Below, one piece after another: positions 2,731-19,532 of a DNA stretch of 32,000 nucleotides. The position numbers were made by a program, and so were the translations under genes. The number at the start of each line of letters is the position of its first letter. Within the stretch, counting starts at the first letter, position 1. The DNA comes from Pyrodictium delaneyi (GTDB lineage: Archaea; Thermoproteota; Thermoprotei_A; Sulfolobales; Pyrodictiaceae): contig NZ_CP013011.1 in the NCBI RefSeq assembly GCF_001412615.1, positions 480,001 to 512,000 on the forward strand. The letters are read 5' to 3'. The notes under the pieces are model-generated. The model was not told where the DNA came from. It saw nothing but the letters and a program-made list of their open reading frames with translations, and did no database searches.

Positions 2731-3369
2731 CTAACGGCGGCTAGCAACAGCCATAGCGATTACTAGGACGCCTACTGCTGCTAGGTATAGTGCCAGACCT
2801 ACTGGTAGACCTGTCTGTACAAGCGGCTCAGCTTCCTCAGAGGGGTTCGGCACCGGCACTTGCGGCAACTTCTGGTAGGTTACAGTTGGCTTCGGCTTCA
2901 CCGGTTGCTGCGTCTGGACAGGAACTGGCTTAGTGGTCGTAGTGGTAGGTGTCTCTGCCTCTGTAGTTGACGCCTCGGTTGGCTTCTCTTCCTGTGCCGG
3001 GGCGGCTCCACCACTCTTAGCCTCCTCAAACACCTTGGCAAAGTAGTCCTTGAGTTCAGGTGTTATCCCGGGCATGGCATTCATAAGTTCGTCCCACGTC
3101 TTAGCGTTGTTGAACATCTTGAAGTTAGGCGCCTCTGCTGCCACAGCCTCGTCAAGGCTCGCATACTTTGACGCCCACTCCTTAATCACCGCCACAGTAC
3201 CCTCGAAATCCGGCGCCATTGCCCCATTATGACAGCCAGTACAGCCCTTAGACTGAAACAGTTGCTTAGCCTCATCTGTGGTTAGTGCGGCTGCTACTGA
3301 CACTAGACCTACAGTTGCTAGTATTGCGAACATCACTATTGCCAGCGATACACGCATCTTCATGGACAT
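2731..3369 (-). CDS. monohaem class-I-like cytochrome c with Thr/Pro-rich linker and C-terminal membrane anchor
   Basis: Single CxxCH (LFQSKGCTGCH). N-terminal signal/TM MKMRVSLAIVMFAILATVGLVSVAAA. TTEAETPTTTTTKPVPVQ linker, then a C-terminal TM ending in RR. GGGGGA precedes the ATGs at 3369/3363. The ORF-track start at 3429 is probably too long. Confidence 0.8.
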   Translation of the reverse strand: MSMKMRVSLAIVMFAILATVGLVSVAAALTTDEAKQLFQSKGCTGCHNGAMAPDFEGTVAVIKEWASKYASLDEAVAAEAPNFKMFNNAKTWDELMNAMPGITPELKDYFAKVFEEAKSGGAAPAQEEKPTEASTTEAETPTTTTTKPVPVQTQQPVKPKPTVTYQKLPQVPVPNPSEEAEPLVQTGLPVGLALYLAAVGVLVIAMAVASRR

Positions 3370-3435
3370 CCCCCATTCATGCGTGCCTGTATTAACTTGA
3401 GTATTTAGAGTATTTAGAGCGCCTAGCACCGGTGA

Positions 3436-3501: not shown

Positions 3502-4758
3502 TCAATGATGTGCACCGCTACCCTTAAAGTAATGTGTCATTACAGCCTTAAGGGCAGGTCTTGCTAGCAATAAGTATATCAGTATGCCGATCGCATGTAC
3601 ACCAGCAGTTATGCCTATCTCCAGCGCCGTTGGATAGTATGGGTGTACTTCACCGAGTGTACCCGGCACAAACGCTGGTATGATTATCGTCATTGTTTTC
3701 TCTGCAACCACTGCCACTATTGTGATAACTGATACCAGGATTATGCCTTTCTTTGAGTTGTGTACACGCGGCAGTATGCCCAATATCACTGCTGCTATAC
3801 CTAGGCCTATCCAAAGCCACATCATCTTCGCCAGATATGGTAAGTGGTATCCCAGGAATAGCACCTGGGCTTGCGCTTTCTTCATGGGCTCAGTGGTATA
3901 CCAGAATATCTCATGGACTTCGCTGAGTGTGAAGTATAAGCCTACGACCAGAGAGCCCACGATCACATACAAGGTCTTCTTGTATACGCTAAAGTCCACT
4001 TTGAAGCCCTTCATATAGCGCTCTGCTAGGTACAGTGCCAGCAGCAGTATTGCAGGACCGCTTGCAAACGCGGTGGCAACGTAGCGGGGAGCAAGCAACG
4101 GGCTGTTCCATATAGGCCTCGCTGTCAGCGCCTGGGATATGAATGCTGTCACAGTATGTATACCTATGGCAAAGGGCGCTGCAATCGTTATGAAAGGTAC
4201 TATGAATTTCTTAGGCAATGGCTTGTCCTGTCTGTAATAGTGGACGGTTACTAGCATACCTATCAAGTTTAGCGTTAGGTAACCCGTTAGTACAATGAAG
4301 TCCCAGTCAAGCATTGAGCGTAGGTTTGGCAGCTGTGGCATCAATATCATAGCACGGAATGGACGGCCAATGTCGACAGTTATGAGCAGCAGCACTGTTA
4401 TGATTGCTGCTACTGCTTGCACTTCACCAAGCACTGCCACTTTTTTGAATTCCTTGTCGCCGAACACATAAGCCGCTATACCAAACACTATACCGGCAGC
4501 CGCTACTCCAACCCAGAATACGAAGAACGCTATGTAAATACCCCATGGCACACTATCACTTAAGTCAGTTAGTATTAGACCGCCTTCTTCCTTACCGAGA
4601 AATATTGGCGCATGCTGGACAAATATCCATAGATACATACCATAGAGCGCCACTATTAGCAAGCCTATTAATGCTAAGTAGTAGCGGCGGCCGCCGTTTA
4701 GTAGTGCTTCTCTGACGATGAATTTTATTGTATCTAGGAAGCTCCCATCCGCAGTCAT
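3502..4758 (-). CDS. NrfD/PsrC-family integral membrane quinol-interacting subunit
   Basis: About 418-aa polytopic membrane protein directly downstream of the Tat-exported FeS subunit. The stop of the upstream gene (TGA 4782-4784) overlaps the longest-ORF TTG at 4785. ATG 4758 is preceded by GGGGGTGA (4764-4771) with a 5-nt spacer. Architecture and context match the NrfD/polysulfide reductase family. Confidence 0.8.
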   Translation of the reverse strand: MTADGSFLDTIKFIVREALLNGGRRYYLALIGLLIVALYGMYLWIFVQHAPIFLGKEEGGLILTDLSDSVPWGIYIAFFVFWVGVAAAGIVFGIAAYVFGDKEFKKVAVLGEVQAVAAIITVLLLITVDIGRPFRAMILMPQLPNLRSMLDWDFIVLTGYLTLNLIGMLVTVHYYRQDKPLPKKFIVPFITIAAPFAIGIHTVTAFISQALTARPIWNSPLLAPRYVATAFASGPAILLLALYLAERYMKGFKVDFSVYKKTLYVIVGSLVVGLYFTLSEVHEIFWYTTEPMKKAQAQVLFLGYHLPYLAKMMWLWIGLGIAAVILGILPRVHNSKKGIILVSVITIVAVVAEKTMTIIIPAFVPGTLGEVHPYYPTALEIGITAGVHAIGILIYLLLARPALKAVMTHYFKGSGAHH

Positions 4759-4781
4759 CTGAGTCACCCCCGGCTTACCTG

Positions 4782-5813
4782 TCAATGTCCAGTTTCTCTC
4801 TCAGTTCCAGGCTCACGTGGAGGTGTACGCTTAGGCCCGAAGAAGTAGAAGAACCTGGGTCTTGTACCGGCTTCCGGCTTCAATACGAAAGCACCGTATT
4901 CCTCTATGACGCGGCGTATTGGGCTACTGGGATCGTGAAGGTCACCAAATACTCTTGCACCGACAGGACATACCTCGACACAAGCCGGCACGCCACCGTC
5001 GCGGGTGCGCTGTATACACCAGGTGCACTTCTCAACAACGTGTATTTGCCTCGGCACATTGCCTAGTATGTGCATGTTGGGGTTCAGTTCAGTTACAGGT
5101 ACGTATGGCTTAGCCCAGTTGAAGCGCCGTGCCCCGTAGGGGCAAGCAGTTATACAGTAACGACAACCAATACAACGGTCATAGTCCACTACTACTATGC
5201 CATCAGGCTCCTTCCATGTAGCCTTAACCGGACACACCATAGTACATGGCGGATCTTCGCAGTGCATACATGCTACTGGTACATACACCATGTTCGGCTT
5301 TGGCGCATCAGTGTAGTGCATGTTAGCGTAAACTATCTCCATTTCCTCTCTGGGTATTTCTAGTACCTTTATCCACTCTATACCCAGGTTCCTTGCCTGA
5401 TTGTTCTCCATGACGCATGCATAGGCGCAACGGCGACAGCCAATACACTTGTTCACATCAAGCGCCATCGCGAAACGCACGCCTTCGCGAGGACCAGTAG
5501 CCTTCACCTTTATCATGGCACAGCGCTTGCGTGCCTCTTTACAAGCCTCGGAGTCCTCACCCATACTGCTACAGATCTTTTCAGCCTCTGCTTGACACCA
5601 CTGCTTAAGCTTGGCTTCTCTTTCCTGGGCTCTTCTTTCAAGGGGGCTACCTGCTTCAGCAGCCTCCGCTATGAGATCCTCTACTCGTACTGGCACTAGC
5701 AGTTTCTTCAGCTCATCCCGGCTAACAGCAACAAATGATACTGCAGAGACGCCAGCCGCTACAGCAGCAACCTTGAGGAAGTCCCTCCTAGACTGGTTTA
5801 TGCGGCCCTCCAC
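4782..5813 (-). CDS. Tat-exported 4x[4Fe-4S] ferredoxin-type subunit (NrfC/PsrB/DsrO/ActB2-like)
   Basis: Twin-arginine signal QSRRDFLKVAAVAAG. Four cluster motifs: CIGCRRCAYAC, CMHCEDPPCTMVCP, CIGCRYCITACP, CTWC...CVEVCP. GTG start at 5813 is preceded by GGGGGTGA (5820-5827) with a 6-nt spacer. Confidence 0.9.
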   Translation of the reverse strand: MEGRINQSRRDFLKVAAVAAGVSAVSFVAVSRDELKKLLVPVRVEDLIAEAAEAGSPLERRAQEREAKLKQWCQAEAEKICSSMGEDSEACKEARKRCAMIKVKATGPREGVRFAMALDVNKCIGCRRCAYACVMENNQARNLGIEWIKVLEIPREEMEIVYANMHYTDAPKPNMVYVPVACMHCEDPPCTMVCPVKATWKEPDGIVVVDYDRCIGCRYCITACPYGARRFNWAKPYVPVTELNPNMHILGNVPRQIHVVEKCTWCIQRTRDGGVPACVEVCPVGARVFGDLHDPSSPIRRVIEEYGAFVLKPEAGTRPRFFYFFGPKRTPPREPGTERETGH

Positions 5814-5829: not shown

Positions 5830-6510
5830 TTACTCACGTGAATACCCTAGAGGGAGAACAAGAGCACCTATAGCTAGGATTAACCCGCCAATAACTGCTG
5901 CTATGGTACCGTAGGCCACGCTGGTCTCGTCAGGTGGTGCAGGCCTATTAGATGGGGGCGGCAGTATGCTCGCAGGTGGCATAGTCGGTTCATGAGGGTT
6001 ATGACATTCGACACATGCCTTAGCCGGTATTGTCTTGAGGTTCTTATACTCGGTGCAGAGGTGAAAGTCGTATCCGACGCCCTTATAGCCTATAACCTTT
6101 GTCACGTTGCCGTTGGGGCAAACATAGGTCTTGTTGCCATGTACTAGGTAGTTATAGTCGGTGACCTCGCGTGGATGGCATACAGCACATACCTTATTGG
6201 TCTCCTTGAGTTCTTGTGTACTGTGTAAGCCAGGTATGTAGACTTGAGCACCATTCACTAGATCTATCATTGTCGGTGCTATATGACAGTTTGAGCAGAA
6301 AAGGCCTCTGTGAGCACCCTTTGTGAGGTCGATACCGTGAAAAGGTACTGTCTTCCTATCGCCAGTTAGCTGCATCGTTTGATGACAGGTTGTACACGGA
6401 TAGAACTGGGCGGGGTCCTGGGCATGCGCTGTGACAGCTGAAAGTACTGGAACTATTATAGCAAGGGCTAGGGCTACTGCAGTCAATACTATGCGCGGAT
6501 TCCAACGCAT
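5830..6510 (-). CDS. tetrahaem c-type cytochrome, N-terminal signal peptide and C-terminal TM anchor
   Basis: Four CxxCH motifs (CTTCH, CSNCH, CAVCH, CVECH). Signal peptide MRWNPRIVLTAVALALAIIVPVLSAVTAHA. Pro-rich linker, then TM IAAVIGGLILAIGALVL. ATG 6510 is preceded by GGAGGTG. The ORF-track extension to 6645 lacks signal-peptide features. Confidence 0.85.
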   Translation of the reverse strand: MRWNPRIVLTAVALALAIIVPVLSAVTAHAQDPAQFYPCTTCHQTMQLTGDRKTVPFHGIDLTKGAHRGLFCSNCHIAPTMIDLVNGAQVYIPGLHSTQELKETNKVCAVCHPREVTDYNYLVHGNKTYVCPNGNVTKVIGYKGVGYDFHLCTEYKNLKTIPAKACVECHNPHEPTMPPASILPPPSNRPAPPDETSVAYGTIAAVIGGLILAIGALVLPLGYSRE

Positions 6511-6770
6511 GCTAGGCACCTCCAAAACCGTTGTAGTCATTATTCTATGTTTCGCTAACACTACACTATTTACCATGATTGAGGTACTGCTAGTACTTAC
6601 TTTAGAATTAAACGTTAGCCCGAAAAGTTCCCCTTTGACCAGCACTGACCAAGTCTACAATTCATGACAAACCCTAGTCCATTCACCTAATTGCACAAAA
6701 TAGTTATGTATATTACGTAAATATTTGCGGAGCTTATACGAAAGTCTTCCGCGAGAATGAGGCCAGACAC

Positions 6771-7313
6771 TTAACTTTCAAGCCTGCCAGCTGGCGCCTG
6801 GTAACTCTCATGACAACCTTCGAGTATCTTATTCACCATCAACAGCGGGTACTCCTCCACTTTACCTGTAGCTGTATTCATTATAACCACATGCACTGAT
6901 GGTTCATAACGTCCCTCTACTACGACCCTACTAGAGACACTCGGGCTACCACCATAAAGGTTCTTGAACTCATTAGCACTATAGAGTGCTACTACGCGAA
7001 ATCCATCTTTCCCTTCTAATATGAATACAGCATAGCTATCATCGTTACCAAAAGGAGGCCCATCTACACGTTCCGCCACCCCATAGGAGCCGAAACCTTT
7101 CATTGAATATACCGTATCTCCTATCCGGAGCAGGTAGCTACTGCCAGCGAGATTTACCGGCGTACCACGAACAGTCACATATGCTTCGTAGTCTAGGCTC
7201 TTTAGACTAGACACATCCTTATAGTCGGACGACTTTATACTCATAAACCCTATTGCCAATAGTGCTGCGAACAGTATACCCGCAAACATTAATGATTTGC
7301 CAGTTTTAGCCAT
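6771..7313 (-). CDS. ccmE: haem chaperone CcmE, archaeal CxxxY variant
   Basis: N-terminal TM anchor, beta-rich (OB-like) body, and a C-terminal LEGCHESYQAP motif (Cys codon at 6813-6815) where bacterial CcmE has HxxxY. Sits between ccmC and the cytochrome genes. GGGGGT lies 7 nt upstream of the ATG. Confidence 0.8.
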   Translation of the reverse strand: MAKTGKSLMFAGILFAALLAIGFMSIKSSDYKDVSSLKSLDYEAYVTVRGTPVNLAGSSYLLRIGDTVYSMKGFGSYGVAERVDGPPFGNDDSYAVFILEGKDGFRVVALYSANEFKNLYGGSPSVSSRVVVEGRYEPSVHVVIMNTATGKVEEYPLLMVNKILEGCHESYQAPAGRLES

Positions 7314-7367: not shown

Positions 7368-8399
7368 TCACACACCTCTACCACGGCTGCGAGATGCATA
7401 TAGCATTAGGACTCCAAGCAACATTAAATATGCCGCTACATTGAGGGCTACACTCCAGTGTATAACTATTTCAACACTAGAGTCTCTTATCTTCACGAGG
7501 TGTCCTATTATTGCAGGCTCACCCTCAACTATCGGTACAGTGAGCGGCTTACTTAGCTCTACATAACCACTCTTAGATAGCATTAACGCGACAACTTCGC
7601 CGTTAGCTAGCTTCGCATCTACTACACGTTCGACTCCGCCACTAAGGTACGGATATACCATAATCAGTCCCACGACTATACCAGCTATAACAAAGACTAT
7701 TCCAGCATAGCGTAATATTCCAACATGAAGGGGCTTAGCATTCTCGTAGCGTTTTGCCATTATATACGCCAGCAGAATAGCTATCAATGATGCCATTACT
7801 ATACGTGTAACAAATATCCTTATGACCTCTGGCTGGGCCATAAAGTTACCAAACTGCTCCATTGTTGGGTGAAGGCTCGAAGCTACTAACCGCGGTGCAA
7901 GGAAGCTTACCGGAACCATAGAGTACGCCGCTACTGCATAGGCTGCACTTAACCTACTTGCACGATCTGGGTCAGGAATGCTTGAACGCAGCACAAAATA
8001 CAAGAGATATGCTAAGAGCAGAAGAAGTACCCCGGTCTCTCGGGGATCCCAGGACCATGCTGAACCCCAGGACTCGCTAGCCCATGCCATACCACTAACG
8101 AGTGTAAATATAGCGTAAGCGGTAGCTGTAGCTATGAACGCCTGTATATACGCATCAAGTTTCTCGCTGCCCCGGACAAGATACGCAATTGCTGTGATAA
8201 ATGCTAGCGTGTATAGAAGGTAGCTTCCCCATGCCATTGGTATATGTATATATATGTTGAGATATGCCGTCGGTGAGCCAAGGTTGACGCGTAGCGGATA
8301 TGGCGCTCTGAAAGCAGCATAGACCACTAGAAGCGCGTCAATAGCCGATAACACTAGAAGTAGGGGAACAATCGTTTTCTCCAGACCACGCTTTACCAT
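7368..8399 (-). CDS. ccmC: haem-handling protein CcmC with about 95-aa C-terminal extension
   Basis: WWD motif WGSAWSWDPRETG and polytopic topology. At 343 aa it is longer than typical CcmC (about 250 aa). The extension is a soluble beta-rich segment plus one extra TM. Confidence 0.85.
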   Translation of the reverse strand: MVKRGLEKTIVPLLLVLSAIDALLVVYAAFRAPYPLRVNLGSPTAYLNIYIHIPMAWGSYLLYTLAFITAIAYLVRGSEKLDAYIQAFIATATAYAIFTLVSGMAWASESWGSAWSWDPRETGVLLLLLAYLLYFVLRSSIPDPDRASRLSAAYAVAAYSMVPVSFLAPRLVASSLHPTMEQFGNFMAQPEVIRIFVTRIVMASLIAILLAYIMAKRYENAKPLHVGILRYAGIVFVIAGIVVGLIMVYPYLSGGVERVVDAKLANGEVVALMLSKSGYVELSKPLTVPIVEGEPAIIGHLVKIRDSSVEIVIHWSVALNVAAYLMLLGVLMLYASRSRGRGV

Positions 8400-8471: not shown

Positions 8472-11400
8472 CTAACGACTATGCCGTTTTACTGCTATTA
8501 TTCTGACTACGGCAATATATACGGCACCAAGGGCCATAATTATTGGACCTATCCATACTAGGCGTATTCCCGGAATTATCTTAACCTGTACATGCAAGCC
8601 CTCCTTTACTATGGTCGAGTTTGTCTGACCGAAGTTCTCGGCTAGAAGGTAGAGGTCTACAAGAGTGGCCTCTACTTGTTGCCGTTCATCAACTGATAAG
8701 CTACCATCATTGAGCACGTCAACATTATACCCTGCAGCCATTAGTGCTGCTAGTGCAAGCCGCTTCTCTGGAGGCAAATGCTTAAAGGCTTCATGAAGGT
8801 AATAGACTAGTAGTTCATGATAGGCGACCCTGCCACCTATATAACCTTCTACTACTGGAGGGCTAACTACGACGTAGACATCATCCAGTCCAAGCCCTAT
8901 AGGTATAACTTTCGATACGAGACCATGTATACCTTGTATCTCACCATAAGCTTCGAAGCGTATCCTAACGTTAACGGTCTTGGACCAGTCTCCGTGTTCT
9001 ATCTTTAATCTTACTTCGAGCCACGCTGTCTCCGGTACCAGTCGCGGTGCGTCGACATAGCCGAAACAGCCATGCTGGCTTTTGAGGCACGTCGGGGATT
9101 CTACTAGCCTGTCTATTGCTGTTGAGTTTACGAGCAGTTGATATAGAGATGACTGCTCTATGCTCTGGAACATCTTCTGGGTTGTAGGGTTTAGCGATGC
9201 TATTAGGTAAGCTGCTACTGCTGGTGAAAGCTGTGATGGCACCTTTACTTTGCCAGCTTCTGGGGACTTTATGTATCCGTATACATAGAGAGCCGCGTTG
9301 CTACCAGTAATGGTGCTATTGTTTACTATGAAAGGAGCGCCTTTACCTGCTAGGAGTAACGCCTCCGGTAGGAGGCCTATACGTTCTGCTATCACTTCTA
9401 CGTCTCCTAGCCTTAGTCTTAGGGGTGTAGTGAACCGCATCTCTATGTATTTGTGGAATCCTATCTTGTCTTGTTCGATCGGAATAACAGCCGGCAGTTC
9501 TACCGTCAGGTTTGCTGCCCCTACAAGTAAGTCCACACTTATGACGCCTGTATTGGGATCCATGTTTAAGTCTAGTCTGAGCAGCGCTTTATCTAGTATT
9601 ATTTTTACTTGCTGATTTCTGGCCAGTATCATGGTGCCGTTGTTTTCAAGATCATATAGAGTTACTGTAGCATTGCCGGTCGCTATTACAGTTGTGTTCA
9701 GATCTATTGGACTATTTTTGGCCACCTTGAATAACCACTCTACAGTCTTATTACTATTGAACAATTCTTTGCCTTGGTTGTAGAGCTTTATAAACTCAGC
9801 TAAGTCGTTTTTAAGGAAGTTGAGCACATTCCATGCTAGGACATATGTGCTACTCCTACCGACATAGTTAGTGTATATATCCACAGTGGAGTTACTTATA
9901 CCGTAACTGAAATCTTCAAATGTTAATTTCGCACCACTAGGTAAACTTATGGAGTCGCCGGGCTTAAGCTCATAATACCAGGTGTACTTATCGTTAAACG
10001 CATAAGTGCCGCTGAGAATTACACCCAGCACAGTTACGGCTAAACCTAGATGCAGTAGCGATACAGCAGTAAGTCTATCGGCTACGATGAGTACTGAACG
10101 ACTACGCCACAACCTATACGCTATGTAGACCAGTGTGGATGCAGCTGCTATGACCGCCCACGGTACACCAAAGGCCATCAGCGCGTTGGTCTCGGGTGGA
10201 CTAAGAGGAGCCAGGATGTAAACGCCTTTATAAGCTGCTAAAGCGAACACTGTGGACACTATTGTTGTTGTTAGGAGTAGTGCTGTGTATCCTTTCCATC
10301 CTAGTTTGTCTCCTGTGAATGCTAGCGGGATTGCTGCTAGCATCGCTACTAGTAGCGGGTAGAGTACGGGGTGGAAGTAGCGTACACCACTCTGCATCTG
10401 AGGAACACTAGCCTCAACGCCAACAGCGCTGAGTATCGAAGGCAGAAAGAGAGTACCATATACGAATATAGCCGATAACAGGAGCGCCATCCCCGCAATA
10501 AACAAGCCCATTTTGTATAAATTCCGCTCCCGCAGCGTCCTAGCAGTCTCAGAAACTATTTTCTCACCATTACGGGCTAGCACATACACACCATAGACTA
10601 GCGGTGTCACACCAGCACTAAGGAGAAGCAGAGCACCAATACCAGGAGCTGCGAAACTATGTAGTGGACTAAGCCCTGTCCTAGTAACATACATGGCTAT
10701 AAACACTGAACTAAGCAGCCATGCAGCGTTATATCTAACAAAACTGGGAACAACAACCATAAAATGCGGCAATGTAGTAGCTACTAGCCATACCATTAGT
10801 TCGCTTGTCTCTACGGGGTCCCATGCCCAGTAGCCTCCCCAGCCGAAGGTCTCGTAGCTCCAGTAGCCGCCAATCATGATGCCGAGGGTTAGGAGAGCCC
10901 AGCCAAGCTCGTAGACGACGAGACTCCGGCGCTTCTCGCCAGTAAGCATAGCTGCAGCCGCTACCGCGAGTAGCGCGTAGCCGCCGAAGGTACTGAGGGG
11001 GTGCGGGTAGAGCCACGGACTCTTAAGCAGCGGGTTAAGCCCAGCACCGCTAGCCGGGCGTTCTGGTAGCAGAGCGAATGCTCCATTTAGAAAGGCTCCA
11101 GCTAGAGCTGCTAGGACCAAGGAGCCTAGTATTGCTTGGAATAGGCGACTCCGGTGAATCCGGAGTAGATAGAGACCTGCTGCCGATGCTATCACAGCGA
11201 AGAGGTATAGACTACCGCCACCCCCGGCCCACGCTGATGCTATTCGCATCGAGAGTGGGAGCCCGGGACTTGTATTCCAGAAAGCCTCACGGAGACTATA
11301 ATCCAGAGTCACAAAGGGGATCACATATACAAACCAGCCCGCTACAGCCACAGCGAGTCCATAGCGTAGTAGGCGCTCTCTACTTCTCCCCGCTACTGCT

Positions 11401-11495
11401 GATGCAACACTAGCTGCTACTAGTAGACCCGCCACGAGTGGAGCTATGCCTGTGTAATGTATGGGCAGAGCCAAGACCATCAATCCTCCATCCAT
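8472..11495 (-). CDS. ccmF: cytochrome c haem lyase subunit CcmF with a greatly expanded extracytoplasmic domain
   Basis: WWD motif WGGYWAWDPVETSE and an N-terminal polytopic region of about 500 aa. This is followed by about 450 aa of non-membrane sequence rich in NxS/T sequons and one terminal TM. Total length is 1007 aa. Confidence 0.9.
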   Translation of the reverse strand: MDGGLMVLALPIHYTGIAPLVAGLLVAASVASAVAGRSRERLLRYGLAVAVAGWFVYVIPFVTLDYSLREAFWNTSPGLPLSMRIASAWAGGGGSLYLFAVIASAAGLYLLRIHRSRLFQAILGSLVLAALAGAFLNGAFALLPERPASGAGLNPLLKSPWLYPHPLSTFGGYALLAVAAAAMLTGEKRRSLVVYELGWALLTLGIMIGGYWSYETFGWGGYWAWDPVETSELMVWLVATTLPHFMVVVPSFVRYNAAWLLSSVFIAMYVTRTGLSPLHSFAAPGIGALLLLSAGVTPLVYGVYVLARNGEKIVSETARTLRERNLYKMGLFIAGMALLLSAIFVYGTLFLPSILSAVGVEASVPQMQSGVRYFHPVLYPLLVAMLAAIPLAFTGDKLGWKGYTALLLTTTIVSTVFALAAYKGVYILAPLSPPETNALMAFGVPWAVIAAASTLVYIAYRLWRSRSVLIVADRLTAVSLLHLGLAVTVLGVILSGTYAFNDKYTWYYELKPGDSISLPSGAKLTFEDFSYGISNSTVDIYTNYVGRSSTYVLAWNVLNFLKNDLAEFIKLYNQGKELFNSNKTVEWLFKVAKNSPIDLNTTVIATGNATVTLYDLENNGTMILARNQQVKIILDKALLRLDLNMDPNTGVISVDLLVGAANLTVELPAVIPIEQDKIGFHKYIEMRFTTPLRLRLGDVEVIAERIGLLPEALLLAGKGAPFIVNNSTITGSNAALYVYGYIKSPEAGKVKVPSQLSPAVAAYLIASLNPTTQKMFQSIEQSSLYQLLVNSTAIDRLVESPTCLKSQHGCFGYVDAPRLVPETAWLEVRLKIEHGDWSKTVNVRIRFEAYGEIQGIHGLVSKVIPIGLGLDDVYVVVSPPVVEGYIGGRVAYHELLVYYLHEAFKHLPPEKRLALAALMAAGYNVDVLNDGSLSVDERQQVEATLVDLYLLAENFGQTNSTIVKEGLHVQVKIIPGIRLVWIGPIIMALGAVYIAVVRIIAVKRHSR

Positions 11496-11530: not shown

Positions 11531-13090
11531 CTAGACGAGTTGAAGTGTATATAAAAGCAAGTACACACCCGCAACAACTAATACAAAGCCACCAATCCGC
11601 TGAAGTAATGTATAACGCCCCATCACCTTGTTTACTATGCTACTACCAAGCCGGCTCGCAGCATAGACTGCGAAAGCTAGTGGAACACTCACACCAAGGG
11701 CAAAGCTGACTGCCACAGCTATACTTGATACCAAGCTTCCTACTCCTACTACCAGTAGTAATGCTCCGGCCACCAACGGCAAACTGCATTGAACCGCTAA
11801 GAAACCATAAACGGCACAAAAGCCGACAAGACCACCACGCTTGATACCAACAACACCTTCTAGCTCTATGGGTATACCGAGAAGACTAGCAACACCTGCA
11901 GCAACTATTGCCGTCGCAACCGCTGGAAGGAGTATACTCTGGAGCGATGATGCAAGGCTAGAAGCAAGGACAAACAACAGTCCTATGGCTATGACGCCGG
12001 TAAAGGCCGCAATACCACATACTATACAGCTGGACGCGGAAATTTTTCTGCCAGAAGTTCCTGCTGCGCTTACATATGCCACCAGTAGAGGGAAAACACA
12101 CGGAGAAAATGTAGCTATAATACCGGCTACTAGCGCTGCTACGACGCCAACTAGGCTAGTACTTATTGCCCCACCGACGTCCAGAGCAGTATCGCCGTTA
12201 CCAGAATTCTGCTGAACACTAGCCGCAAGAGTAACATTAGTCAACGCCGCTATCGCTGGCGGCTCTCTATCCTCAAGCACCGCTGAAACATAGTCGAGAA
12301 GGTAGGCTAATCTGTCTATCTCATAAGATGATAGGTCTGGGACATATTTCCTCATAGACTTGACTGTATCGGATATTCCTCCATAGCTCCCATAGAGCTC
12401 GCGTAGTGTCATATTCTTCTCTAGAGCCTCGTTTAGTCTCCTCGCTAGGAGATCAGCCCTGGTATCGCGGGACTCGAGCCATGCCTGCAGCGAAGCTTTA
12501 TCCAGCCCACCTATCTTGCCATGACAAGCAGAGCAGCGGCTGTTAAAGATGCGCAGCCCTTCTTCTGCTAGCTTTTGGGGGTCAGACACACTGCTTAAAC
12601 CTACAGAGAACAATGCCCAGTTAAGCATTGTATCGGTAACATTCTCACCACCGAATGGACCTACGTGTCTTGCTACAGGCTCACCATCGACGAATACTAT
12701 GAATGTTGGCGTCTCCGTCACATGATATTTTCTAAAAGCCTCTTCAGTTGAAGGACCATAGACTATATGGAAGAAGCTGATAGGGAGGCTGTCGCTTCGA
12801 TACTCCAGCATAGCCCAGTAAGGGTGCATCTGCTTACACGTAGGACACGTAGGAGACTCAAACATTATTGCTATAGGCTTTTTTGAATCAAGTATCTTCT
12901 CTAACATAGCCGAGCTTGATATAGCGTATTCGTCGACCCTCATGTAGTAAGTAGCCAAATTTTGCTCCCAAGTGAAGAGGATAGTCGAGAATAACACTCC
13001 GACTACTAGTAACGCCACCAGCAGTACTCCAGCCCTCTTGGTCTTTTGGAAGCCATGGATGTCTAAGCGCATTCTACTAGAGTTCTGCAT
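11531..13090 (-). CDS. fusion protein: TM anchor + thioredoxin-like (CcmG/ResA-like) + cytochrome c-like CxxCH domain + CcdA/DsbD-type thiol transporter
   Basis: CPTC at residues 82-85 with a cis-Pro TPTF. EEGLRIFNSRCSACHG at residues 176-191. C-terminal polytopic domain with FSPCVFPL and AVQCSLPL, the CcdA signature cysteines. Confidence 0.8.
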   Translation of the reverse strand: MQNSSRMRLDIHGFQKTKRAGVLLVALLVVGVLFSTILFTWEQNLATYYMRVDEYAISSSAMLEKILDSKKPIAIMFESPTCPTCKQMHPYWAMLEYRSDSLPISFFHIVYGPSTEEAFRKYHVTETPTFIVFVDGEPVARHVGPFGGENVTDTMLNWALFSVGLSSVSDPQKLAEEGLRIFNSRCSACHGKIGGLDKASLQAWLESRDTRADLLARRLNEALEKNMTLRELYGSYGGISDTVKSMRKYVPDLSSYEIDRLAYLLDYVSAVLEDREPPAIAALTNVTLAASVQQNSGNGDTALDVGGAISTSLVGVVAALVAGIIATFSPCVFPLLVAYVSAAGTSGRKISASSCIVCGIAAFTGVIAIGLLFVLASSLASSLQSILLPAVATAIVAAGVASLLGIPIELEGVVGIKRGGLVGFCAVYGFLAVQCSLPLVAGALLLVVGVGSLVSSIAVAVSFALGVSVPLAFAVYAASRLGSSIVNKVMGRYTLLQRIGGFVLVVAGVYLLLYTLQLV

Positions 13091-13233: not shown

Positions 13234-13905
13234 TTACACAGCCTCCAGGATATAGCGAGAAAGCCAAACAGTCACCCCAGTAAATGCCAGGGCCGCTAAG
13301 ACAAGCCATACAACCTCTAACACCCCTATATTACCACCCAGAAGTGCAGCCACTATGCTAGGTGCTGCGGACTGCACATAGGGAAGCACGAGGACAAGCA
13401 CCATTACGGGCATCAATACTGCACGGGCCTCACTAAACACTAATATAGCTGAAGTAAAGCTAGATACAGCTGCAAGATACATACTTGACACAATAATCAA
13501 CATAAGTACTACTGGACTAAACATAACCCCTATTTGGGCAAAGAAGCCCAACGACATTATAAAGACAAGTGCTTGCATTGTTATAACTGCAAAACTATAG
13601 ACAAACTTTGCAAGGAATATAACCTCTGCACCTACTGGAGCCAATCGGAGTCCATCAAGTGTACCGCGATCAGCTTCTCTGACAAAGCTAGAAAGACTTC
13701 CAAATACGGCAAGGAATATGAGAACAAGAACGAGAGAAACACTGGCAGCAGCAGCATTTACTCCAGCAACACCTTTCATAACATATGCTGTGAGGACACC
13801 GGCAGCTAACGAGAATACTAGCATGGACCCCGCTTCAACTCTACGACGCAGATCTAGCAAGATATCTCTGCGTACAATAGCCGCTATTGCCCTTATACCG
13901 CTCAT
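13234..13905 (-). CDS. ccmB: haem exporter membrane subunit CcmB
   Basis: About 224-aa, six-TM hydrophobic protein in ccm context. ATG 13905 is preceded by GGGGGAGGT. The ORF-track start at 13989 adds 28 unlikely residues. Confidence 0.8.
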   Translation of the reverse strand: MSGIRAIAAIVRRDILLDLRRRVEAGSMLVFSLAAGVLTAYVMKGVAGVNAAAASVSLVLVLIFLAVFGSLSSFVREADRGTLDGLRLAPVGAEVIFLAKFVYSFAVITMQALVFIMSLGFFAQIGVMFSPVVLMLIIVSSMYLAAVSSFTSAILVFSEARAVLMPVMVLVLVLPYVQSAAPSIVAALLGGNIGVLEVVWLVLAALAFTGVTVWLSRYILEAV

Positions 13906-14101
13906 GACCTCCCCCAATCTTCCAGCGTCTCTAAGCCCCTTAATCACTACGCCTCGAGATCGCCAAAAAGCCAGCCAAATTACGAACACACTACACCATT
14001 ACACATAAAGACTGATAATCAATACTAGGACCAAGGACTAACATGTTACACCGAAGACGCGCTACCAAGAGAGTCAAAAAGGCTAAGAAGGATGATAAGT
14101 C

Positions 14102-15052
14102 CTAGGTTACAGTTGCCTCAGCAGCCTCCTCGATTCCAGCCCCAGTTTTAGCACGTTCCTCTACACGATGCCTAGAGCTGAGACGTTCCTCCACAATACT
14201 TGTTTGCCGATTACCATACAATGCCCTTCCAACTATGTAGTGTGGCAGCTCGTGACGCACAAATGCGTCAATTATCTTAGCTTCAGCCCTACGAAGGAGT
14301 TCTGCAAGAGTTGATACCGAGAGCCCTAGTTTTGATGCAAGTCCTTTTAGACTGATCCGGCGCGGAAAGCTATAGTAGCCCATGAGATAAGCATAGATTA
14401 TAGCAAGCTCCTGCTTCTCAGTAAGCATATAATCATACTCATCTATACCATGGCTGTGAATAGGCTTACAACCCCAACGGCGTAGTTCTTCATAAGTACT
14501 ACCACGAGCTACAATGAATTCATAGAGGGCCCCCATCGGAGTTACTACTACAGATTTAGCCATTGAACCAAGTGGTGTAGATATAAGCGGACACTTATTA
14601 CAAGGCGTAGATAATAAGCATCTATGGCATTTACTTTTCGGTATAATAATACGCACAACCTTATTGAATTTGTTCGAATACACTTGCTGGAAGTAAATCT
14701 CCTTAGCTAAGCGTAGTTGTTTATCAAAATTATCTACGAGAACTTTGTCACCACTGACTCTAACCCAAATTTCCGTATAATTATCGTCATATAAGTTGAC
14801 TCTTAGAATACGCAGAGCTAGCCTCGTTGCTCCATCCCCGCCTAAAATACCATCGACACTCATCTTGGAGCCATCATTCCCATGCAGACGTCGCACATTA
14901 GACGAAACATAGGCAGCCTTAACTACATCGTAAAGCGGACAATCCAATTCACGTAGACAGTATACCACAGATGATTTGTGAGACAAGTTATACACCCCAA
15001 AGAGGAACCGCCATAGTAATACACCACCACACTCCGGCGTAGGTGGTGTCAA
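14102..15052 (-). CDS. HTH_10 (bacterio-opsin activator-type) transcriptional regulator with a CxxC-x5-CxxC motif
   Basis: C-terminal LTEKQELAIIYAYLMGYYSFPRRISLKGLASKLGLSVSTLAELLRRAEAKII matches the Bat-type HTH. Central KCHRCLLSTPCNKCP at 14591-14629. The longest ORF starts with TTG and the true start is uncertain (ATG at residue 64 is possible). Confidence 0.6.
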   Translation of the reverse strand: MTPPTPECGGVLLWRFLFGVYNLSHKSSVVYCLRELDCPLYDVVKAAYVSSNVRRLHGNDGSKMSVDGILGGDGATRLALRILRVNLYDDNYTEIWVRVSGDKVLVDNFDKQLRLAKEIYFQQVYSNKFNKVVRIIIPKSKCHRCLLSTPCNKCPLISTPLGSMAKSVVVTPMGALYEFIVARGSTYEELRRWGCKPIHSHGIDEYDYMLTEKQELAIIYAYLMGYYSFPRRISLKGLASKLGLSVSTLAELLRRAEAKIIDAFVRHELPHYIVGRALYGNRQTSIVEERLSSRHRVEERAKTGAGIEEAAEATVT

Positions 15053-15158: not shown

Positions 15159-16742
15159 TTAAGTTATATATCGTTTACTAACAATCACTATACTAAACAT
15201 CGCGCCGAAACCTAAGCCAATTAGAAACCATAATATTTGCTCATAACGATCTGCTATTAGTTGCGCATTCCCATAAGAACCAGAAGAATTAATATCTTTT
15301 ATAGCTATTTGTTTAATTCTTGACTTATTTAAATATATATCTGACTTACCATGCTGTGCAACACCATTTTCTGGAAATTCTTTATTTTCTATGCCGGCTG
15401 TTACATTTAACTTTCCATGTTGTTGCACTGTGTAATTGACAAGCTCTCTAGAAGGACATCCAGTTAAGTTAGTCATAGTCTTCATATCTACGCTAAGACT
15501 ACTTATATCTATTAAAGGCCATGTACTACTTTTAGTGCTAGCTGCTATAAGCACACGACCAACCAGAGCTTCTAGAGTCTCTCTACAAGGAGATTGTAAT
15601 TCTTCAACCATCATTTTTATAACGTCCAACAAGCTTATAGAATCCTTAAGTCCAGTCGTAATTGATAGGTTGTATAACCTCCTTACAGTATCAATATAAA
15701 CATCTCTATCACAGGCCTGTATACCTGCATACCATAATGCAGCATTAACTCGCATCCAAACACTGTATTGTTCATCTACATCCAACATGTCATTAAGATA
15801 ATTAACAGCTAGTCTATACAAGCGGGGATTATTATCGTGGAGAGCTTTCATAGCCAGAAACTCTGCAGCCGCTTCCTGAAAGCTAAAATCACCATACAAC
15901 ATACCATGGTTAAACCATCCATGTGATGTCTCGTGCGCCGCCGTATGGACAAGCCAAGGAAGTATATCCTCAGCATATGAGCTTAATTTCATGTATACTA
16001 TACTGCCCATGCTATGCGCTGTATTTGGTGGCAGAAAGCTATGTTCTTCTGGTCCTACAATCACGAGAACGCAAGGCGAGCGTGGACTCGGACCAAGCCA
16101 TTTAGTTAAGGTGGAGCGCACTATTAGTAAGCTTTCCACGGCATACTTGACAACATTTTCTGGTATATTGCGCTGCATAATCACAGTCAAGTTTTCTTCT
16201 ATATAGTCATTAATATCATATATTCTTCTGTTGGCCAAGACTATTCCGTCAAATATGTAGTATCTGGCGAAAGATTCGAGATCCACTCTGTAAGGGCCCC
16301 CGGCTGGCCCGTAGCTGCGCCAGTCCATACTACTTCTAACCATATAGTTATCAGGAACATGTATCGTTATAAGTAGAGTTTTGTTTCCACTACTGCCAGC
16401 AAGGATCTGTATCTCAGAGATAATTTGCGGACATACTTTATCCAGTACATAGTAGAGGGGGGCCACTATAAGATCGCGAGATACACTCCTAGTTTGTAAA
16501 TAATACACGTTAGGGCCTAGTAAACCAGAACAGTTTATGCTGGAATCATGCCCCTCTAATGTTATAGAAACGCGCCAGACATCGCTGCTTACGGGCTCTT
16601 TAAATACTATTATAAGGTTATATTGCTGAACTGTATCCGTCTTATCGGTGAGATTGGATACTCCAGCTATAGCAATGGAACTCGTAAGAATAATAATTGC
16701 CGCAAAACTTGTCACAGTATAGCATAGCCAACACGAAGCCAT
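15159..16742 (-). CDS. membrane-anchored extracellular gluzincin (peptidase M1-like) protein
   Basis: HETSHGWFNH...FQEAAAEF resembles the M1 HExxH-x18-E region (HELAHQWFGN...WLNEGFA). No clear GxMEN motif. N-terminal signal/TM and a C-terminal TM ending KRYIT. Many NxS/T sequons. The gene is markedly AT-rich. Confidence 0.55.
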   Translation of the reverse strand: MASCWLCYTVTSFAAIIILTSSIAIAGVSNLTDKTDTVQQYNLIIVFKEPVSSDVWRVSITLEGHDSSINCSGLLGPNVYYLQTRSVSRDLIVAPLYYVLDKVCPQIISEIQILAGSSGNKTLLITIHVPDNYMVRSSMDWRSYGPAGGPYRVDLESFARYYIFDGIVLANRRIYDINDYIEENLTVIMQRNIPENVVKYAVESLLIVRSTLTKWLGPSPRSPCVLVIVGPEEHSFLPPNTAHSMGSIVYMKLSSYAEDILPWLVHTAAHETSHGWFNHGMLYGDFSFQEAAAEFLAMKALHDNNPRLYRLAVNYLNDMLDVDEQYSVWMRVNAALWYAGIQACDRDVYIDTVRRLYNLSITTGLKDSISLLDVIKMMVEELQSPCRETLEALVGRVLIAASTKSSTWPLIDISSLSVDMKTMTNLTGCPSRELVNYTVQQHGKLNVTAGIENKEFPENGVAQHGKSDIYLNKSRIKQIAIKDINSSGSYGNAQLIADRYEQILWFLIGLGFGAMFSIVIVSKRYIT

Positions 16743-16932: not shown

Positions 16933-19482
16933 TTAGCTCCGGCGGTAGACTATTGATAGGCCTAGGGCTATTACTGCAGCAGCTAGCGCTATAGCGCCTA
17001 GCGTGTAAGCTGTCGATGATACACTGTCTATCTTGCTGCTTAACTCATCGATCTTCTTGCTTATCTCCTCTATCATGCTTATAGCTTGGCCTGCCTTATT
17101 GCTTGCCTCTTCAGCCTTCATGCTCGCCTCTTCTGCCTTAGCATTTGCTGTCTCAGCCTTCTGTCCTATAGTCTGTAGCTGTCCCGCCACCTGCTGTATC
17201 TCGGATACTAGCTTCTGTATCTCCTTGGCCTGTGGACTTAGTGCCTCTAGCTGTTTGCTCAGCTCTTGCAACTGCTGCAATAGTGTGTTAACATCAGTCT
17301 TTAGCGAGCCAACGTCACCTTCTATAGCTGAATAGCCGGTCTCTAGGCTCTGTAGCTGGCTCTTTAGCACCGGTACCTGGGCCTCTAGAGCTGCTAGCTG
17401 CGCCTTGAGGCTCTCTAGTTCGCGCTGTAGTTGTGCTATCTGTGCAGCTAGCTCAGGCGTGTACGGAGCACCAGCAGCTGCCTGCTTTAGTGCCTGTAGC
17501 TCAGTTTCTATCTGCTTTATCTTTAGTGCCGTGTAGAGGTAGCTGGTCATTCTACCTAGCTTGTCCATTACCGTATCTACTATACCGAACCAGTGGGCGA
17601 AGTCTGGACCCATCATGTAGACGCCATTCCTCCAGCGGCGACCCTCATGATGCCATATGTAGTACCACATTATCTCCATGTACTCGTCAAGTATGTTCTT
17701 GTTATCGTGTATGCCCTCCTTCCACGCTAGCTGTAGTAGCGCGTTCGCGAACCTGGCTACTATGTCGTAGTCTATCATGTTCTGGTCGGCAGTACGGAAG
17801 AAGTTCTCGGTCCACTGGCTGCTGTGACATAGCTTACATACTGCCTCCATCTCGGCACGGTGCTTGGCTAGCTCGCCAGTGTACTCTACCTTTAGTAGTC
17901 TCGGGAACTTGGTCTCGCCTATCTTGCCACCATCCTCTACTATCTTTATGCCGGTGAATACCGGGTACTTGTATGGCTCTGGTGCCTTGTCGTTCTTCTT
18001 AGCCTCTATGTCCTCTAGCTTGCCCTTTAGCTGGCTCCAGCCGTAGAATAGTGCTTGCTGCATCTTGTCGGGTATTATGCCCTTAGGTATGCTGAAGAAG
18101 TGCATCTGGTCCCATACTAGCCTCTTCACAAGGTCGTGGGTACCGGGCACTAATATGTTGCCGTTAGCATCGGCTAGAGCACTCATGTGACATGTAGCAC
18201 ATGTTGGCGCATTGAAGTCTACACCAACACGCCATGGTATCTGATCCCAGTTCCAGTCCTTACCGTATACGTCCCATATGTTGCCGTGCTTGCTCTCCTC
18301 GTAGATCTCTATGTGTGGATGGTCGTAACCTAGGTGGCACTGACCACATGTCCATGGCTCGCGTGCCTGCTTTATGCTGAATAAATGTCTTGGGTGGCAT
18401 GCAGTACAAGTGCCAAGGCTGCCGTCTGGGTCTAGACGAGCTGCACCATTGTTAGGCCAGCCCCATAGGGCTACTCTATTGACTTGCATACCATTGATTG
18501 TCACAGTCTCCTTCTTATAGGGTACTACGACTGTACCGTGACATTCGAAGCATGCATGATATATGTACCCGTTTCTGAACGATGGGTGCTCCATCACGTT
18601 ACTTATTGCTTTACTGTTACCATCTATGGACGTTACTGCTATCTTTATACCCATCTTGTTAAGAAGTGTTGTATTTAGTACACCACTTGCAGGCCATAGC
18701 GGGCTTATAAATGTCTTCCAGTCATAATCATAGGGCGTTACCATGCCAGTTGCCTCTTTGAGCATCTTTACTATGTCATTCTCCTGGCCAGTCTCCATGT
18801 ACTGCATTATGGCCTTTGCTATCTCCTTGTAGAAGTTCCAGTTTATGTCATCTACGTCACGCTGCTTAGTTAGGTATGGTGGGAAGTACTTCTCGTAGAG
18901 GGCCTTAGCCTGGGCATCGCCGAATGGGTCTGCGCCCTGGCTCTTAGCCCACTTTAGTATGCCCAGATACCATGGCTTAAATGGTGACATGACGCTGCCT
19001 GTTGCGTGCCATGTCCAGCTTATCTCTGCGCTCTCCTTGGGGTGACACTGGCTACAGTCCTTCCTTGTAACTATGGTTACTATCTTGTAGCCGAAGTGGT
19101 TTTCTATGACGTCAGGCCTGTCAGCTTCCTTAAACATACCGTGACACTCGTAACAGCCTATTACGTAGTTGTAGTTCTTGAACTTGTCAGCTATCTTGTC
19201 GGCCCATTCTGGGGTGCCTATAGCCTTGTAGAGGTCTGCTAGCGCTGCAGGGGTCATCTCGGCATGCTTGCTGTTAGCCCAGTCATACACTATGCCCGGT
19301 GTATACTGTATGTGACAGCTTAGACATGCCTTGGTCTGCGGGCTTACGACATCACTCTTCATTAGTTCTTGAACCTTAGCTGCTAGGTCGTCGCCGAACT
19401 GGGCTGCATGAGCAGGTGCTGCTATGCCTGCTACTAGGAGGAAGGATAGGACTAGGATACCGGCTAGTAGGAAGCGCTTCAT
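16933..19482 (-). CDS. octahaem c-type cytochrome, hydroxylamine oxidoreductase (HAO)-family-like, with C-terminal coiled-coil stalk and TM anchor
   Basis: Eight CxxCH motifs (CLSCH, CYECH, CSQCH, CFECH, CTACH, CGQCH, CATCH, CKLCH). The block GTCTACHPRHLFSIKQAREPWTCGQCHLGYDHPHIEIYEESKHG matches my memory of the HAO family. Signal peptide MKRFLLAGILVLSFLLVAGIAAPAHA follows GGAGGG. The last 198 aa are about 172 aa of heptad-like Q/L/E/K-rich sequence plus a TM ending YRRS. Confidence 0.85.
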   Translation of the reverse strand: MKRFLLAGILVLSFLLVAGIAAPAHAAQFGDDLAAKVQELMKSDVVSPQTKACLSCHIQYTPGIVYDWANSKHAEMTPAALADLYKAIGTPEWADKIADKFKNYNYVIGCYECHGMFKEADRPDVIENHFGYKIVTIVTRKDCSQCHPKESAEISWTWHATGSVMSPFKPWYLGILKWAKSQGADPFGDAQAKALYEKYFPPYLTKQRDVDDINWNFYKEIAKAIMQYMETGQENDIVKMLKEATGMVTPYDYDWKTFISPLWPASGVLNTTLLNKMGIKIAVTSIDGNSKAISNVMEHPSFRNGYIYHACFECHGTVVVPYKKETVTINGMQVNRVALWGWPNNGAARLDPDGSLGTCTACHPRHLFSIKQAREPWTCGQCHLGYDHPHIEIYEESKHGNIWDVYGKDWNWDQIPWRVGVDFNAPTCATCHMSALADANGNILVPGTHDLVKRLVWDQMHFFSIPKGIIPDKMQQALFYGWSQLKGKLEDIEAKKNDKAPEPYKYPVFTGIKIVEDGGKIGETKFPRLLKVEYTGELAKHRAEMEAVCKLCHSSQWTENFFRTADQNMIDYDIVARFANALLQLAWKEGIHDNKNILDEYMEIMWYYIWHHEGRRWRNGVYMMGPDFAHWFGIVDTVMDKLGRMTSYLYTALKIKQIETELQALKQAAAGAPYTPELAAQIAQLQRELESLKAQLAALEAQVPVLKSQLQSLETGYSAIEGDVGSLKTDVNTLLQQLQELSKQLEALSPQAKEIQKLVSEIQQVAGQLQTIGQKAETANAKAEEASMKAEEASNKAGQAISMIEEISKKIDELSSKIDSVSSTAYTLGAIALAAAVIALGLSIVYRRS

Positions 19483-19532
19483 GATCGGCATACCCTCCAC
19501 ACACCCTTATTTTTAGCCGTGATAGTCAATAT

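Follow-up and report, generated by a model that had tools for sequence, protein, structure and literature searches.

In this study, a stretch of 32,000 nucleotides from the genome of Pyrodictium delaneyi (contig NZ_CP013011.1, positions 480,001 to 512,000; the whole stretch is called the window below) was analysed, and an open reading frame (ORF) on its minus strand was found to encode a fusion protein with the following domain order: transmembrane (TM) anchor, thioredoxin domain, helical CxxCH module, disordered linker and six-helix CcdA domain. The fusion represents a new architecture within the DsbD/CcdA superfamily and is restricted to the Desulfurococcales. A role of its CcdA and thioredoxin parts in cytochrome c maturation is likely. 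Moreover, the whole protein is read here, with moderate confidence, as the self-contained CcdA-to-thioredoxin arm of an archaeal System I lacking CcmH, in which a mono-haem domain ligated by His190 and Met246 serves as redox outlet or sensor. The tripartite architecture was recognised by neither PMC5556600 nor PMC8105010.

Domain architecture of the fusion protein

The fusion gene and its parts have the following positions in the window.

11531-13090, minus: fusion ORF, ATG start, 519 amino acids (ORF listing and re-translation of the coordinates)
12968-13090, minus: predicted cytoplasmic tail (residues 1-20, positively charged) and TM anchor (about 21-41), from hydropathy
12605-12922, minus: predicted extracytoplasmic thioredoxin domain, residues 57-162 (Pfam, AlphaFold, Foldseek)
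12836-12847, minus: active site C82-P-T-C85 (re-translation)
12707-12709, minus: cis-Pro128, in T127-P128-T129-F130 (re-translation)
12266-12580, minus: all-helical middle module, residues 171-275, about 105 residues (Pfam, conservation, AlphaFold)
12521-12535, minus: haem-c signature C186-S-A-C189-H190, within EEGLRIFNSRCSACHGK (re-translation)
12353-12355, minus: candidate sixth ligand M246 (conservation)
12170-12247, minus: flexible linker, residues 282-307 (predicted local distance difference test score, pLDDT, below 50; variable in length and sequence in the alignment)
11534-12169, minus: CcdA-type six-TM domain, residues 308-519 (family profile against 5VKV, model)
12098-12100, minus: C331, in S-P-C331-V-F-P (FSPCVFPL; re-translation)
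11786-11788, minus: C435, in Q-C435-S-L-P (AVQCSLPL; re-translation)
12017-12028 and 11816-11818, minus: extra cysteines C355-I-V-C358 and C425 (clade-specific)

An exact-sequence look-up identified the 519-residue ORF as WP_082419421.1 / OWJ54005.1 of P. delaneyi, where WP_082419421.1 is annotated as 'thioredoxin fold domain-containing protein' or 'cytochrome c biogenesis protein'. In the annotation of strain Su06 the gene encodes 495 amino acids (ALL00542.1, UniProt A0A0P0N1Z6, Pyrde_0492). The sequence-only reading of the window had described this ORF as a protein of four parts, and all motifs that it quoted were recovered at their residues by re-translation. The start codon is uncertain (13073-13090, minus), as public annotations give 519, 513 and 495 amino acids, and most homologues start at the equivalent of Met7 (MRLD...); the domains are unaffected. 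Mass spectrometry showed Pyrde_0492 at similar abundance in P. delaneyi cultures with ferrihydrite and with nitrate, and CcmF and the CcmE candidate of the same cluster were likewise detected in the proteome (PMC8105010). That study counted Pyrde_0492, from its motif only, as a 'monoheme' cytochrome of a putative respiratory complex. In the genome paper of strain Hulk, the product was assigned to the CcdA superfamily and 'predicted to be a functional homolog of CcmH', and it was left out of the list of CXXCH proteins (PMC5556600). The Hyperthermus butylicus homologue, A2BMX6, was absent from the supplements and tables of Kletzin et al. 2015, in which thioredoxin-family proteins with CxxCH are treated as false positives.

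By its profile matches, the thioredoxin domain is a classical thioredoxin outside the TlpA-like CcmG/ResA family. Residues 63-151 matched Thioredoxin_2 (PF13098, 38.1 bits) and PF00085 (34.9 bits), both above the curated Pfam cut-offs of 27 and 23.5 bits, respectively. Membership in the CcmG/DsbE/ResA group was not indicated, since Redoxin, with E=0.043, reached 14 bits where 26.6 are required, and the NCBIfam matches of the fusion protein at E<=1 included no DsbE/CcmG model. In the AlphaFold2 model, built from a family alignment of 48 sequences, the domain had a pLDDT above 93, and Foldseek with the full-length model returned classical archaeal and bacterial thioredoxins only (probability 1.00, target-normalised TM-score 0.7-0.86), with no matches for the other domains. 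The CcmG/ResA-type assignment made from the sequence alone was thus replaced on the evidence of both Pfam and Foldseek. C82 and C85 were present in 47 of the 48 aligned homologues and P128 in all 48, and the CP[TV]C active site of the family resembles the E. coli CcmG motif, CPTC. Reduction of apocytochrome or CcmH disulfides by this domain is a putative function, which the ccm operon context supports.

The membrane domain was recognised through its family. A single-sequence search of the PDB with this domain returned no matches, and the family profile was needed: a profile of 17 sequences (A3) gave Thermus thermophilus CcdA, 5VKV, as the sole significant chain (E=3.3e-6), with profile positions 12-211 aligned to 3-200 from TM1 to TM6 and both cysteines in register. 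Alone, the window protein stayed below the Pfam cut-offs for the CcdA families (DsbD_2, E=0.42), and DsbD_TM (PF02683) was matched at E<=0.01 by just 8 of the 48 members. The residues C331, C435, P330, P334, Q434 and P438 were conserved in 47 of the 48 homologues, so that the fusion has the Pro-flanked cysteines that CcdA carries in TM1 and TM4 of its inverted repeat. The closest genome relatives of the membrane domain outside the family were bona fide DsbD_TM proteins of Solirubrobacterales and Methanolobus. By homology, the membrane domain would carry reducing equivalents from cytoplasmic thioredoxin outward.

The topology of the fusion was predicted from its charges. Across the family, the mean net charge was +4.3 on the N-terminal side of the first helix and -1.1 over the 20 residues after it. 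Because the tail is rich in Arg and Lys and the stretch after the helix is acidic, the positive-inside rule would place the anchor with its N-terminus inside and its C-terminus outside, and residues 42-305, which comprise the thioredoxin domain and the CxxCH module, are predicted to lie outside the membrane. The CcdA domain would then enter from the outside, so that its Arg/Lys loops 344-350, 417-418 and 480-498, which follow TM1, TM3 and TM5 of the six helices in the AlphaFold model, would be on the inside. The anchor and all three inner CcdA loops are consistent with the positive-inside rule across the family, and the N-out orientation of CcdA matches the topology predicted for the fusion. 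The question, raised in the sequence-only reading, of whether all soluble parts face outside was therefore answered by the prediction in the affirmative. In the model, the thioredoxin domain is joined to the CxxCH domain by about 8 residues, and the soluble pair to TM1 by a linker of about 25 residues; anchored at both ends with a flexible linker, the pair may be able to swing.

Within the CcdA domain, the extra cysteines C355, C358 and C425 are located close to where TM2 and TM4 are predicted to end on the cytoplasmic side. Nearly every sequence of the Pyrodictiaceae-type clade has the full set of three, as does the two-domain protein P0038. P0034, P0046 and P0047 have only the C358 and C425 equivalents, P0029 is without C358, and none of the three is found in the distant Desulfurococcales clade (P0036-P0045). 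A metal site or an additional relay facing the cytoplasm may be formed by these residues.

The CxxCH module

The haem signature of the middle module is strictly conserved. C186, C189, H190, W204, M246 and L265 were invariant in the 44 module-bearing members of the alignment (44/44), so that the CxxCH motif is conserved as a functional site would be. The motif was also kept in the distant representatives that were read one by one (P0064, P0066, P0078, P0088, P0130 and P0171). An amphipathic helix (G-L-x-I/V-F) leads into CxxCH and is followed by a Trp at His+14, a Met at His+56 and a long C-terminal helix; in the model, helix 171-185 directly precedes C186 and the C-terminal helix spans 255-272. 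In its linear order, this layout corresponds to the signature of a class I cytochrome c with His/Met ligation.

Profile comparisons pointed in the same direction at low scores. The Pfam matches of the module were to cytochrome c families only. Cytochrome_CBB3 matched residues 175-262 of the full protein with E=3.5e-4 and 21.3 bits, and the isolated module with E=3.5e-5 and 24.5 bits, against a cut-off of 27. When members were scanned singly, 18 of 29 and 28 of 48 matched this family at E<=0.01, always below the cut-off, and the best of their E-values (2.9e-5 and 1.4e-4) were no stronger than the sub-threshold score of the window domain. In a search of the PDB with the module profile, nearly all of the weak matches were class I cytochromes c, with CcoP the best (E=2.7e-5), and the alignments spanned only the N-terminal helix and CxxCH. 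Similarly, hhalign of the module against horse cytochrome c gave 89.5% probability over 21 columns, and against horse cytochrome c or Pseudomonas c551 the alignments covered 21-38 columns around CxxCH only. Because of this short span, the Met ligand is not placeable by homology.

The module modelled alone (29 sequences, without haem) had seven helices, a pLDDT of 92.3 and a predicted template-modelling score of 0.86. A Foldseek search of this model against 350,542 PDB chains gave no match to any solved fold, the best E-value being 1.8. The sole cytochrome-containing chain among the matches listed was 1bl9_A (probability 0.18, query TM-score 0.34), and no CcmH chain was among the 50 best matches, all with E>1. 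The sequence-only reading had called the segment class-I cytochrome c-like and had named a predicted structure without a cytochrome c fold as evidence to the contrary; no such fold was found, and the profile likeness is confined to the N-terminal helix and CxxCH, so that the class assignment is not supported. The missing fold match is read as lowering the case for a class I cytochrome member, not the case for binding haem c. A second suggestion, that the module replaces CcmH through a resemblance to its RCxxC motif, found no support either: there was no match to the CcmH family (PF03918) in the window protein at E<=1 or in the 48 members at E<=0.01, no likeness in the predicted fold, and Arg185 was present in just 18 of the 44 module-bearing members.

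A stand-alone homologue of the module, P0171 (202 amino acids; locus L086, 722-1330), was also identified (hhalign probability 97.6% over 100 columns). In P0171, a signal anchor precedes the module, which contains CSKCH and the aligned Met; a linker rich in Thr and a C-terminal TM helix follow. The gene of P0171 lies between that of a cytochrome with at least 6 CxxCH motifs and that of a tetrahaem cytochrome, which is followed by a 4Fe-4S protein gene. Such a neighbourhood points to an electron-transfer cytochrome rather than to a thiol relay. The contig has a low GC content (34%), and P0171 was the sole such representative found among 1.84 billion. Among the three roles offered for the segment in the sequence-only reading (a genuine haem domain, a substrate mimic or a CcmH replacement), the invariant His and Met and the stand-alone homologue in a multihaem operon favour the first, and the last is unsupported. 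Hence, on the conservation evidence, it is fairly probable that the module binds haem, and the predicted fold suggests that it is probably a structurally novel mono-haem c domain.

Distribution and proposed role of the fusion family

A word-indexed search of 5.8 billion proteins returned 47 clusters, nearly all with full-length coverage. The identities to the fusion were 69% in P. abyssi, 53% in Hyperthermus butylicus and 33-38% in Desulfurococcales metagenome-assembled genomes (MAGs), and the fusion architecture was found in about 45 clusters, limited to Pyrodictiaceae, Hyperthermus and Desulfurococcales. When one genome per GTDB species was searched, the full-length relatives were confined to Pyrodictium, Pyrodictiaceae, Hyperthermus, Desulfurococcales and one Thermoproteota MAG, and the bacterial matches were to the CcdA part or the thioredoxin part alone. 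An exhaustive search of 1.84 billion representatives with a hidden Markov model of the module found the complete module in about 15, all of the fusion architecture, and in P0171. The other matches were larger proteins in which the motif stretch (profile positions of about 5-50) was repeated, and these were read as poly-cytochromes c.

The gene neighbourhood ties the three-domain protein to cytochrome c maturation. In the window and in 8 further loci (L002, L005-L010, L012), ccmF directly follows the three-domain gene, down to 34% identity; unlike this adjacency, the respiratory genes around the fusion are not conserved. Four homologues lack exactly the module of about 110 residues. Among them, the Pyrolobus type (P0034 and P0038; L001 and L003/L011, in Pyrolobus fumarii and a related MAG) is located away from ccm genes, and its genes stand beside isochorismatase and 3'-phosphoadenosine 5'-phosphosulfate (PAPS)-reductase/4Fe-4S genes. 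In a neighbour-joining tree of the shared domains (no support values, no outgroup), the Pyrolobus type fell inside the three-domain clade, which tentatively suggests a secondary loss of the module together with relocation of the gene. The closest thioredoxin relatives from bacteria are small, exported thioredoxins whose genes immediately precede a separate CcdA gene (L077, L059), and in Methanosarcina acetivorans ccmG and ccdA are likewise adjacent and separate (PMC9084895).

Fusions of a CcdA-like core to a thioredoxin fold have been described before, in DsbD, ScsB and the beta-gamma fusions (PMC3322552), so that the claim of the sequence-only reading that transporter and thioredoxin are always separate in bacteria overstated the novelty. 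Like DsbD and ScsB, the present fusion combines a CcdA-like transporter, a thioredoxin fold and a further periplasmic domain, each with a Cys pair, and would share with them the delivery of cytoplasmic reducing power to cytochrome c maturation. However, the core of DsbD/ScsB has eight helices, whereas that of the fusion has six (CcdA type) besides the N-terminal anchor; the thioredoxin of DsbD/ScsB is C-terminal (gamma), whereas that of the fusion is N-terminal, behind its own TM anchor, and of the classical type. Furthermore, DsbD/ScsB have an Ig-like alpha domain and no haem signature, and the fusion has no beta-rich alpha domain; its third module is helical, with CxxCH and an invariant Met. 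The proposed relay unites the CcdA-to-CcmG/ResA logic of Systems I and II with the DsbD beta-to-gamma logic in one chain. The CcdA and CcmG/ResA/CcsX systems have the same two activities as those proposed for the fusion, the conserved cysteines, the predicted sidedness and the link to cytochrome c, but they consist of separate polypeptides without a haem-motif module, and CcmG/ResA are TlpA-like/Redoxin proteins whereas the thioredoxin of the fusion belongs to PF00085/PF13098.

The module itself can be compared with three kinds of protein. With class I cytochromes c it shares the helix leading into CxxCH, the Trp, the Met, the C-terminal helix and the extracytoplasmic location, but its scores stay under the cut-off over 21-38 columns, its seven-helix fold is unmatched and the full domain occurs almost only in the fusion family. 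With CcmH it shares the form of a small, helical, membrane-tethered periplasmic unit, a CxxC pair and the genetic coupling to CcmF, but there is no likeness in sequence, in the LRCxxC motif or, for the three-helix bundle of CcmH, in the predicted fold, and the module has a His and a Met that suggest haem ligation. NapB of Shewanella is, like the putative haem domain, a c-type cytochrome in redox contact with a maturation thioredoxin (PMC8782879), but it is a separate dihaem suppressor protein, whereas the domain of the fusion is built in and conserved. The literature searched yielded no account of a DsbD-superfamily protein with a cytochrome-type module in it; therefore, the embedded haem-motif domain appears to be undescribed, while the thioredoxin-CcdA fusion itself is already known.

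The following mechanism is proposed. By homology, reducing equivalents would pass from cytoplasmic thioredoxin across the membrane to C331/C435 of the CcdA domain, from there to the tethered extracytoplasmic C82/C85, and further to the disulfide-bonded CxxCH of exported apocytochromes at CcmF. The middle module would be matured by the Ccm system into a covalent mono-haem c centre with His190/Met246 ligation, which is plausible because the module is predicted to lie outside, where the Ccm system works. The potential of a His/Met haem is usually far more positive than that of a dithiol. Since such a haem would be more oxidising, the natural flow would run from the thioredoxin dithiol to the haem, and the haem may act as a one-electron outlet or redox sensor, through which redox conditions at the outer face would be linked to the thiol relay. 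More speculatively, the haem might couple the relay to the haem held by CcmE/CcmF. An extended version, to which a low probability is given, is that of a thiol-driven haem reductase, in which electrons exported by CcdA would not only reduce apocytochrome disulfides by way of the thioredoxin domain but would also move singly from the dithiol to the His/Met haem and from there to the CcmE/CcmF haem, which would be kept ferrous for thioether formation; in archaea without CcmH, one polypeptide would thereby replace both CcmH and the quinol-dependent reduction proposed for bacterial CcmF.

Several observations weigh against the reading of the fusion as a relay arm with a haem outlet. The two-domain P0046 type (L004) lacks the module and is still followed by ccmF, which indicates that the module is dispensable for the basic function. 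Every Pfam cytochrome match of the module stays under its curated threshold, and the predicted fold has no cytochrome counterpart among the PDB chains searched. Pyrde_0492 was not among the proteins identified in the haem-stained bands of PMC8105010. In addition, CcmG and CcdA are both dispensable in M. acetivorans under reducing laboratory conditions (PMC9084895), so that the need for a thioreduction pathway in a strict anaerobe is open to question. Finally, the midpoint potential of the haem and the direction of electron flow are purely inferred.

Other explanations place the module or the whole protein differently. The module might carry no haem, its CxxC being a third dithiol in a cascade from CcdA through thioredoxin and module to the apocytochrome, and thus a CcmH stand-in docked on CcmF. 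The bacterial System I path indeed has three dithiol components (CcdA/DsbD, CcmG and CcmH), as many as the fusion has conserved Cys pairs; neither the cluster nor archaea in general have CcmH, ccmF adjoins the three-domain gene at all loci examined, the module resembles CcmH in being all-helical, with no cytochrome c fold recognised, and a 'functional homolog of CcmH' has already been guessed in PMC5556600. However, His190 and Met246, invariant in all 44 carriers, would be needless for a plain dithiol, no CcmH match was obtained with Pfam or among the 50 best Foldseek matches listed, the Arg of RCxxC is kept in a minority of members, and the stand-alone P0171 is encoded in a multihaem cytochrome operon, not a ccm operon. 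This explanation is therefore considered unlikely. It is also conceivable that a haem-bearing module works as an electron input, through which electrons of the respiratory chain from the neighbouring multihaem cytochromes reduce the thioredoxin and back up or bypass CcdA. NapB reduces CcmG in Shewanella dsbD mutants (PMC8782879), and Pyrde_0492 was grouped with a putative respiratory complex (PMC8105010). The operon encodes tetrahaem and octahaem cytochromes and an NrfD/4Fe-4S module, and the linker of about 8 residues between the thioredoxin and CxxCH domains is short. Nevertheless, a haem with His/Met ligands is as a rule too oxidising to pass electrons to a thioredoxin disulfide, the strict conservation of the CcdA cysteines argues that the cytoplasmic route has not been replaced, and the interaction with multihaem proteins is purely putative, which makes an electron input quite improbable.

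A further explanation is that the fusion serves mainly as a membrane-anchored subunit with one haem in the Pyrde_0485-0496 respiratory complex, or as a general reductase outside the cytoplasm, rather than as a dedicated maturation factor. It was counted among the c-type cytochromes of that complex (PMC8105010), the Pyrolobus-type two-domain relatives lie away from ccm genes, and bacterial CcdA systems also serve non-cytochrome substrates (PMC3322552). The immediate neighbours, however, are ccmB, ccmF, ccmC and ccmE, the adjacency to ccmF outlasts that to the respiratory genes down to 34% identity, and the abundance of the protein does not track the electron acceptor, so that the chance of such a role is slim. 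An assembly or frameshift artefact, which the sequence-only reading had raised against itself, has a negligible probability: the same unbroken ORF is present in two P. delaneyi genomes, in the complete P. abyssi and H. butylicus genomes and in dozens of separate metagenome assemblies, and the protein was detected by proteomics. The fusion is thus genuine, its architecture recurring in about 45 clusters and several genomes.

The maturation of archaeal c-type cytochromes without CcmH, CcmD and CcmI is a standing question (PMC9084895). The fusion family is a naturally fused, thermostable, whole thioreduction arm abutting CcmF, and is an attractive single-protein system for the structure and biochemistry of CcdA-to-thioredoxin electron transfer. 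A strictly conserved haem signature in one chain with CcdA and thioredoxin suggests that thiol and haem redox chemistry may be coupled. If haem is bound, a haem cofactor would be seen in a DsbD-superfamily protein for the first time, the module would be a new c-type haem fold, and a concrete handle on the coupling of thiol and haem redox steps in cytochrome c assembly would be provided. The analysis also corrects two labels in the literature, namely 'CcmH homolog' (PMC5556600) and 'monoheme cytochrome' (PMC8105010).

Operon context and neighbouring genes

The genes around the fusion are listed below in the order of transcription, from the octahaem cytochrome gene to ccmA.

16933-19500, minus: octahaem cytochrome
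15159-16742, minus: ORF of 527 amino acids with no Pfam or NCBIfam match
14102-15052, minus: HTH_10 regulator
13234-13989, minus: ccmB, upstream of the fusion (Pfam CcmB / ABC2_membrane)
8472-11495, minus: ccmF, 1007 amino acids, 35 bp downstream of the fusion (Pfam Cytochrom_C_asm and CcmF_C)
7368-8399, minus: ccmC (Pfam Cytochrom_C_asm and TIGR01191)
6771-7313, minus: candidate archaeal CcmE, 180 amino acids, Pyrde_0489 (TM anchor and C-terminal ILEGC-HES-Y, CxxxY)
5830-6645, minus: tetrahaem cytochrome
4782-5813, minus: 4Fe-4S protein
3502-4785, minus: NrfD
2731-3429, minus: monohaem cytochrome, 232 amino acids, CTGCH, Pyrde_0485
1914-2747, minus: ccmA

No scanned ORF of the cluster matched a CcmH family, which agrees with the earlier remark that CcmH is missing here. 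The ORF at 6771-7313 looks, from its motif, like an overlooked archaeal CcmE of the CxxxY type. It has no Pfam or NCBIfam match, and the ILEGCHxxY motif is kept in syntenic homologues beside ccmC or ccmF (L005, L006, L009, L010). The CxxxY variant of CcmE is attributed to Allen et al. 2006, as cited in PMC4429474, and no CcmE was annotated in the genome paper of strain Hulk.

CcmF, with 1007 amino acids in the window and 996-1080 in relatives, is about 350-450 residues longer than a typical bacterial CcmF; the extra region is without Pfam annotation. In the window protein this region contains only two cysteines, C803 and C810, which are kept at varying spacing in close relatives and are absent in L002, L009 and L012. 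This pair was considered as a CcmH substitute and rejected, as it is not conserved in the distant clade.

The 527-residue ORF has hydrophobic segments at its N- and C-termini and an HExxH-like motif, 'HETSH'. The neighbouring 232-residue monohaem cytochrome was tried as a paralogue of the middle module and rejected (hhalign probability 18%; BLASTP against P0171, E=1.6), there being no significant similarity to the module or to P0171. Its gene ends the NrfD/4Fe-4S/tetrahaem module, and its layout of signal anchor, Thr/Pro-rich linker and C-terminal TM helix is the same as that of P0171. This protein, Pyrde_0485, was reported to be more abundant on ferrihydrite (PMC8105010).

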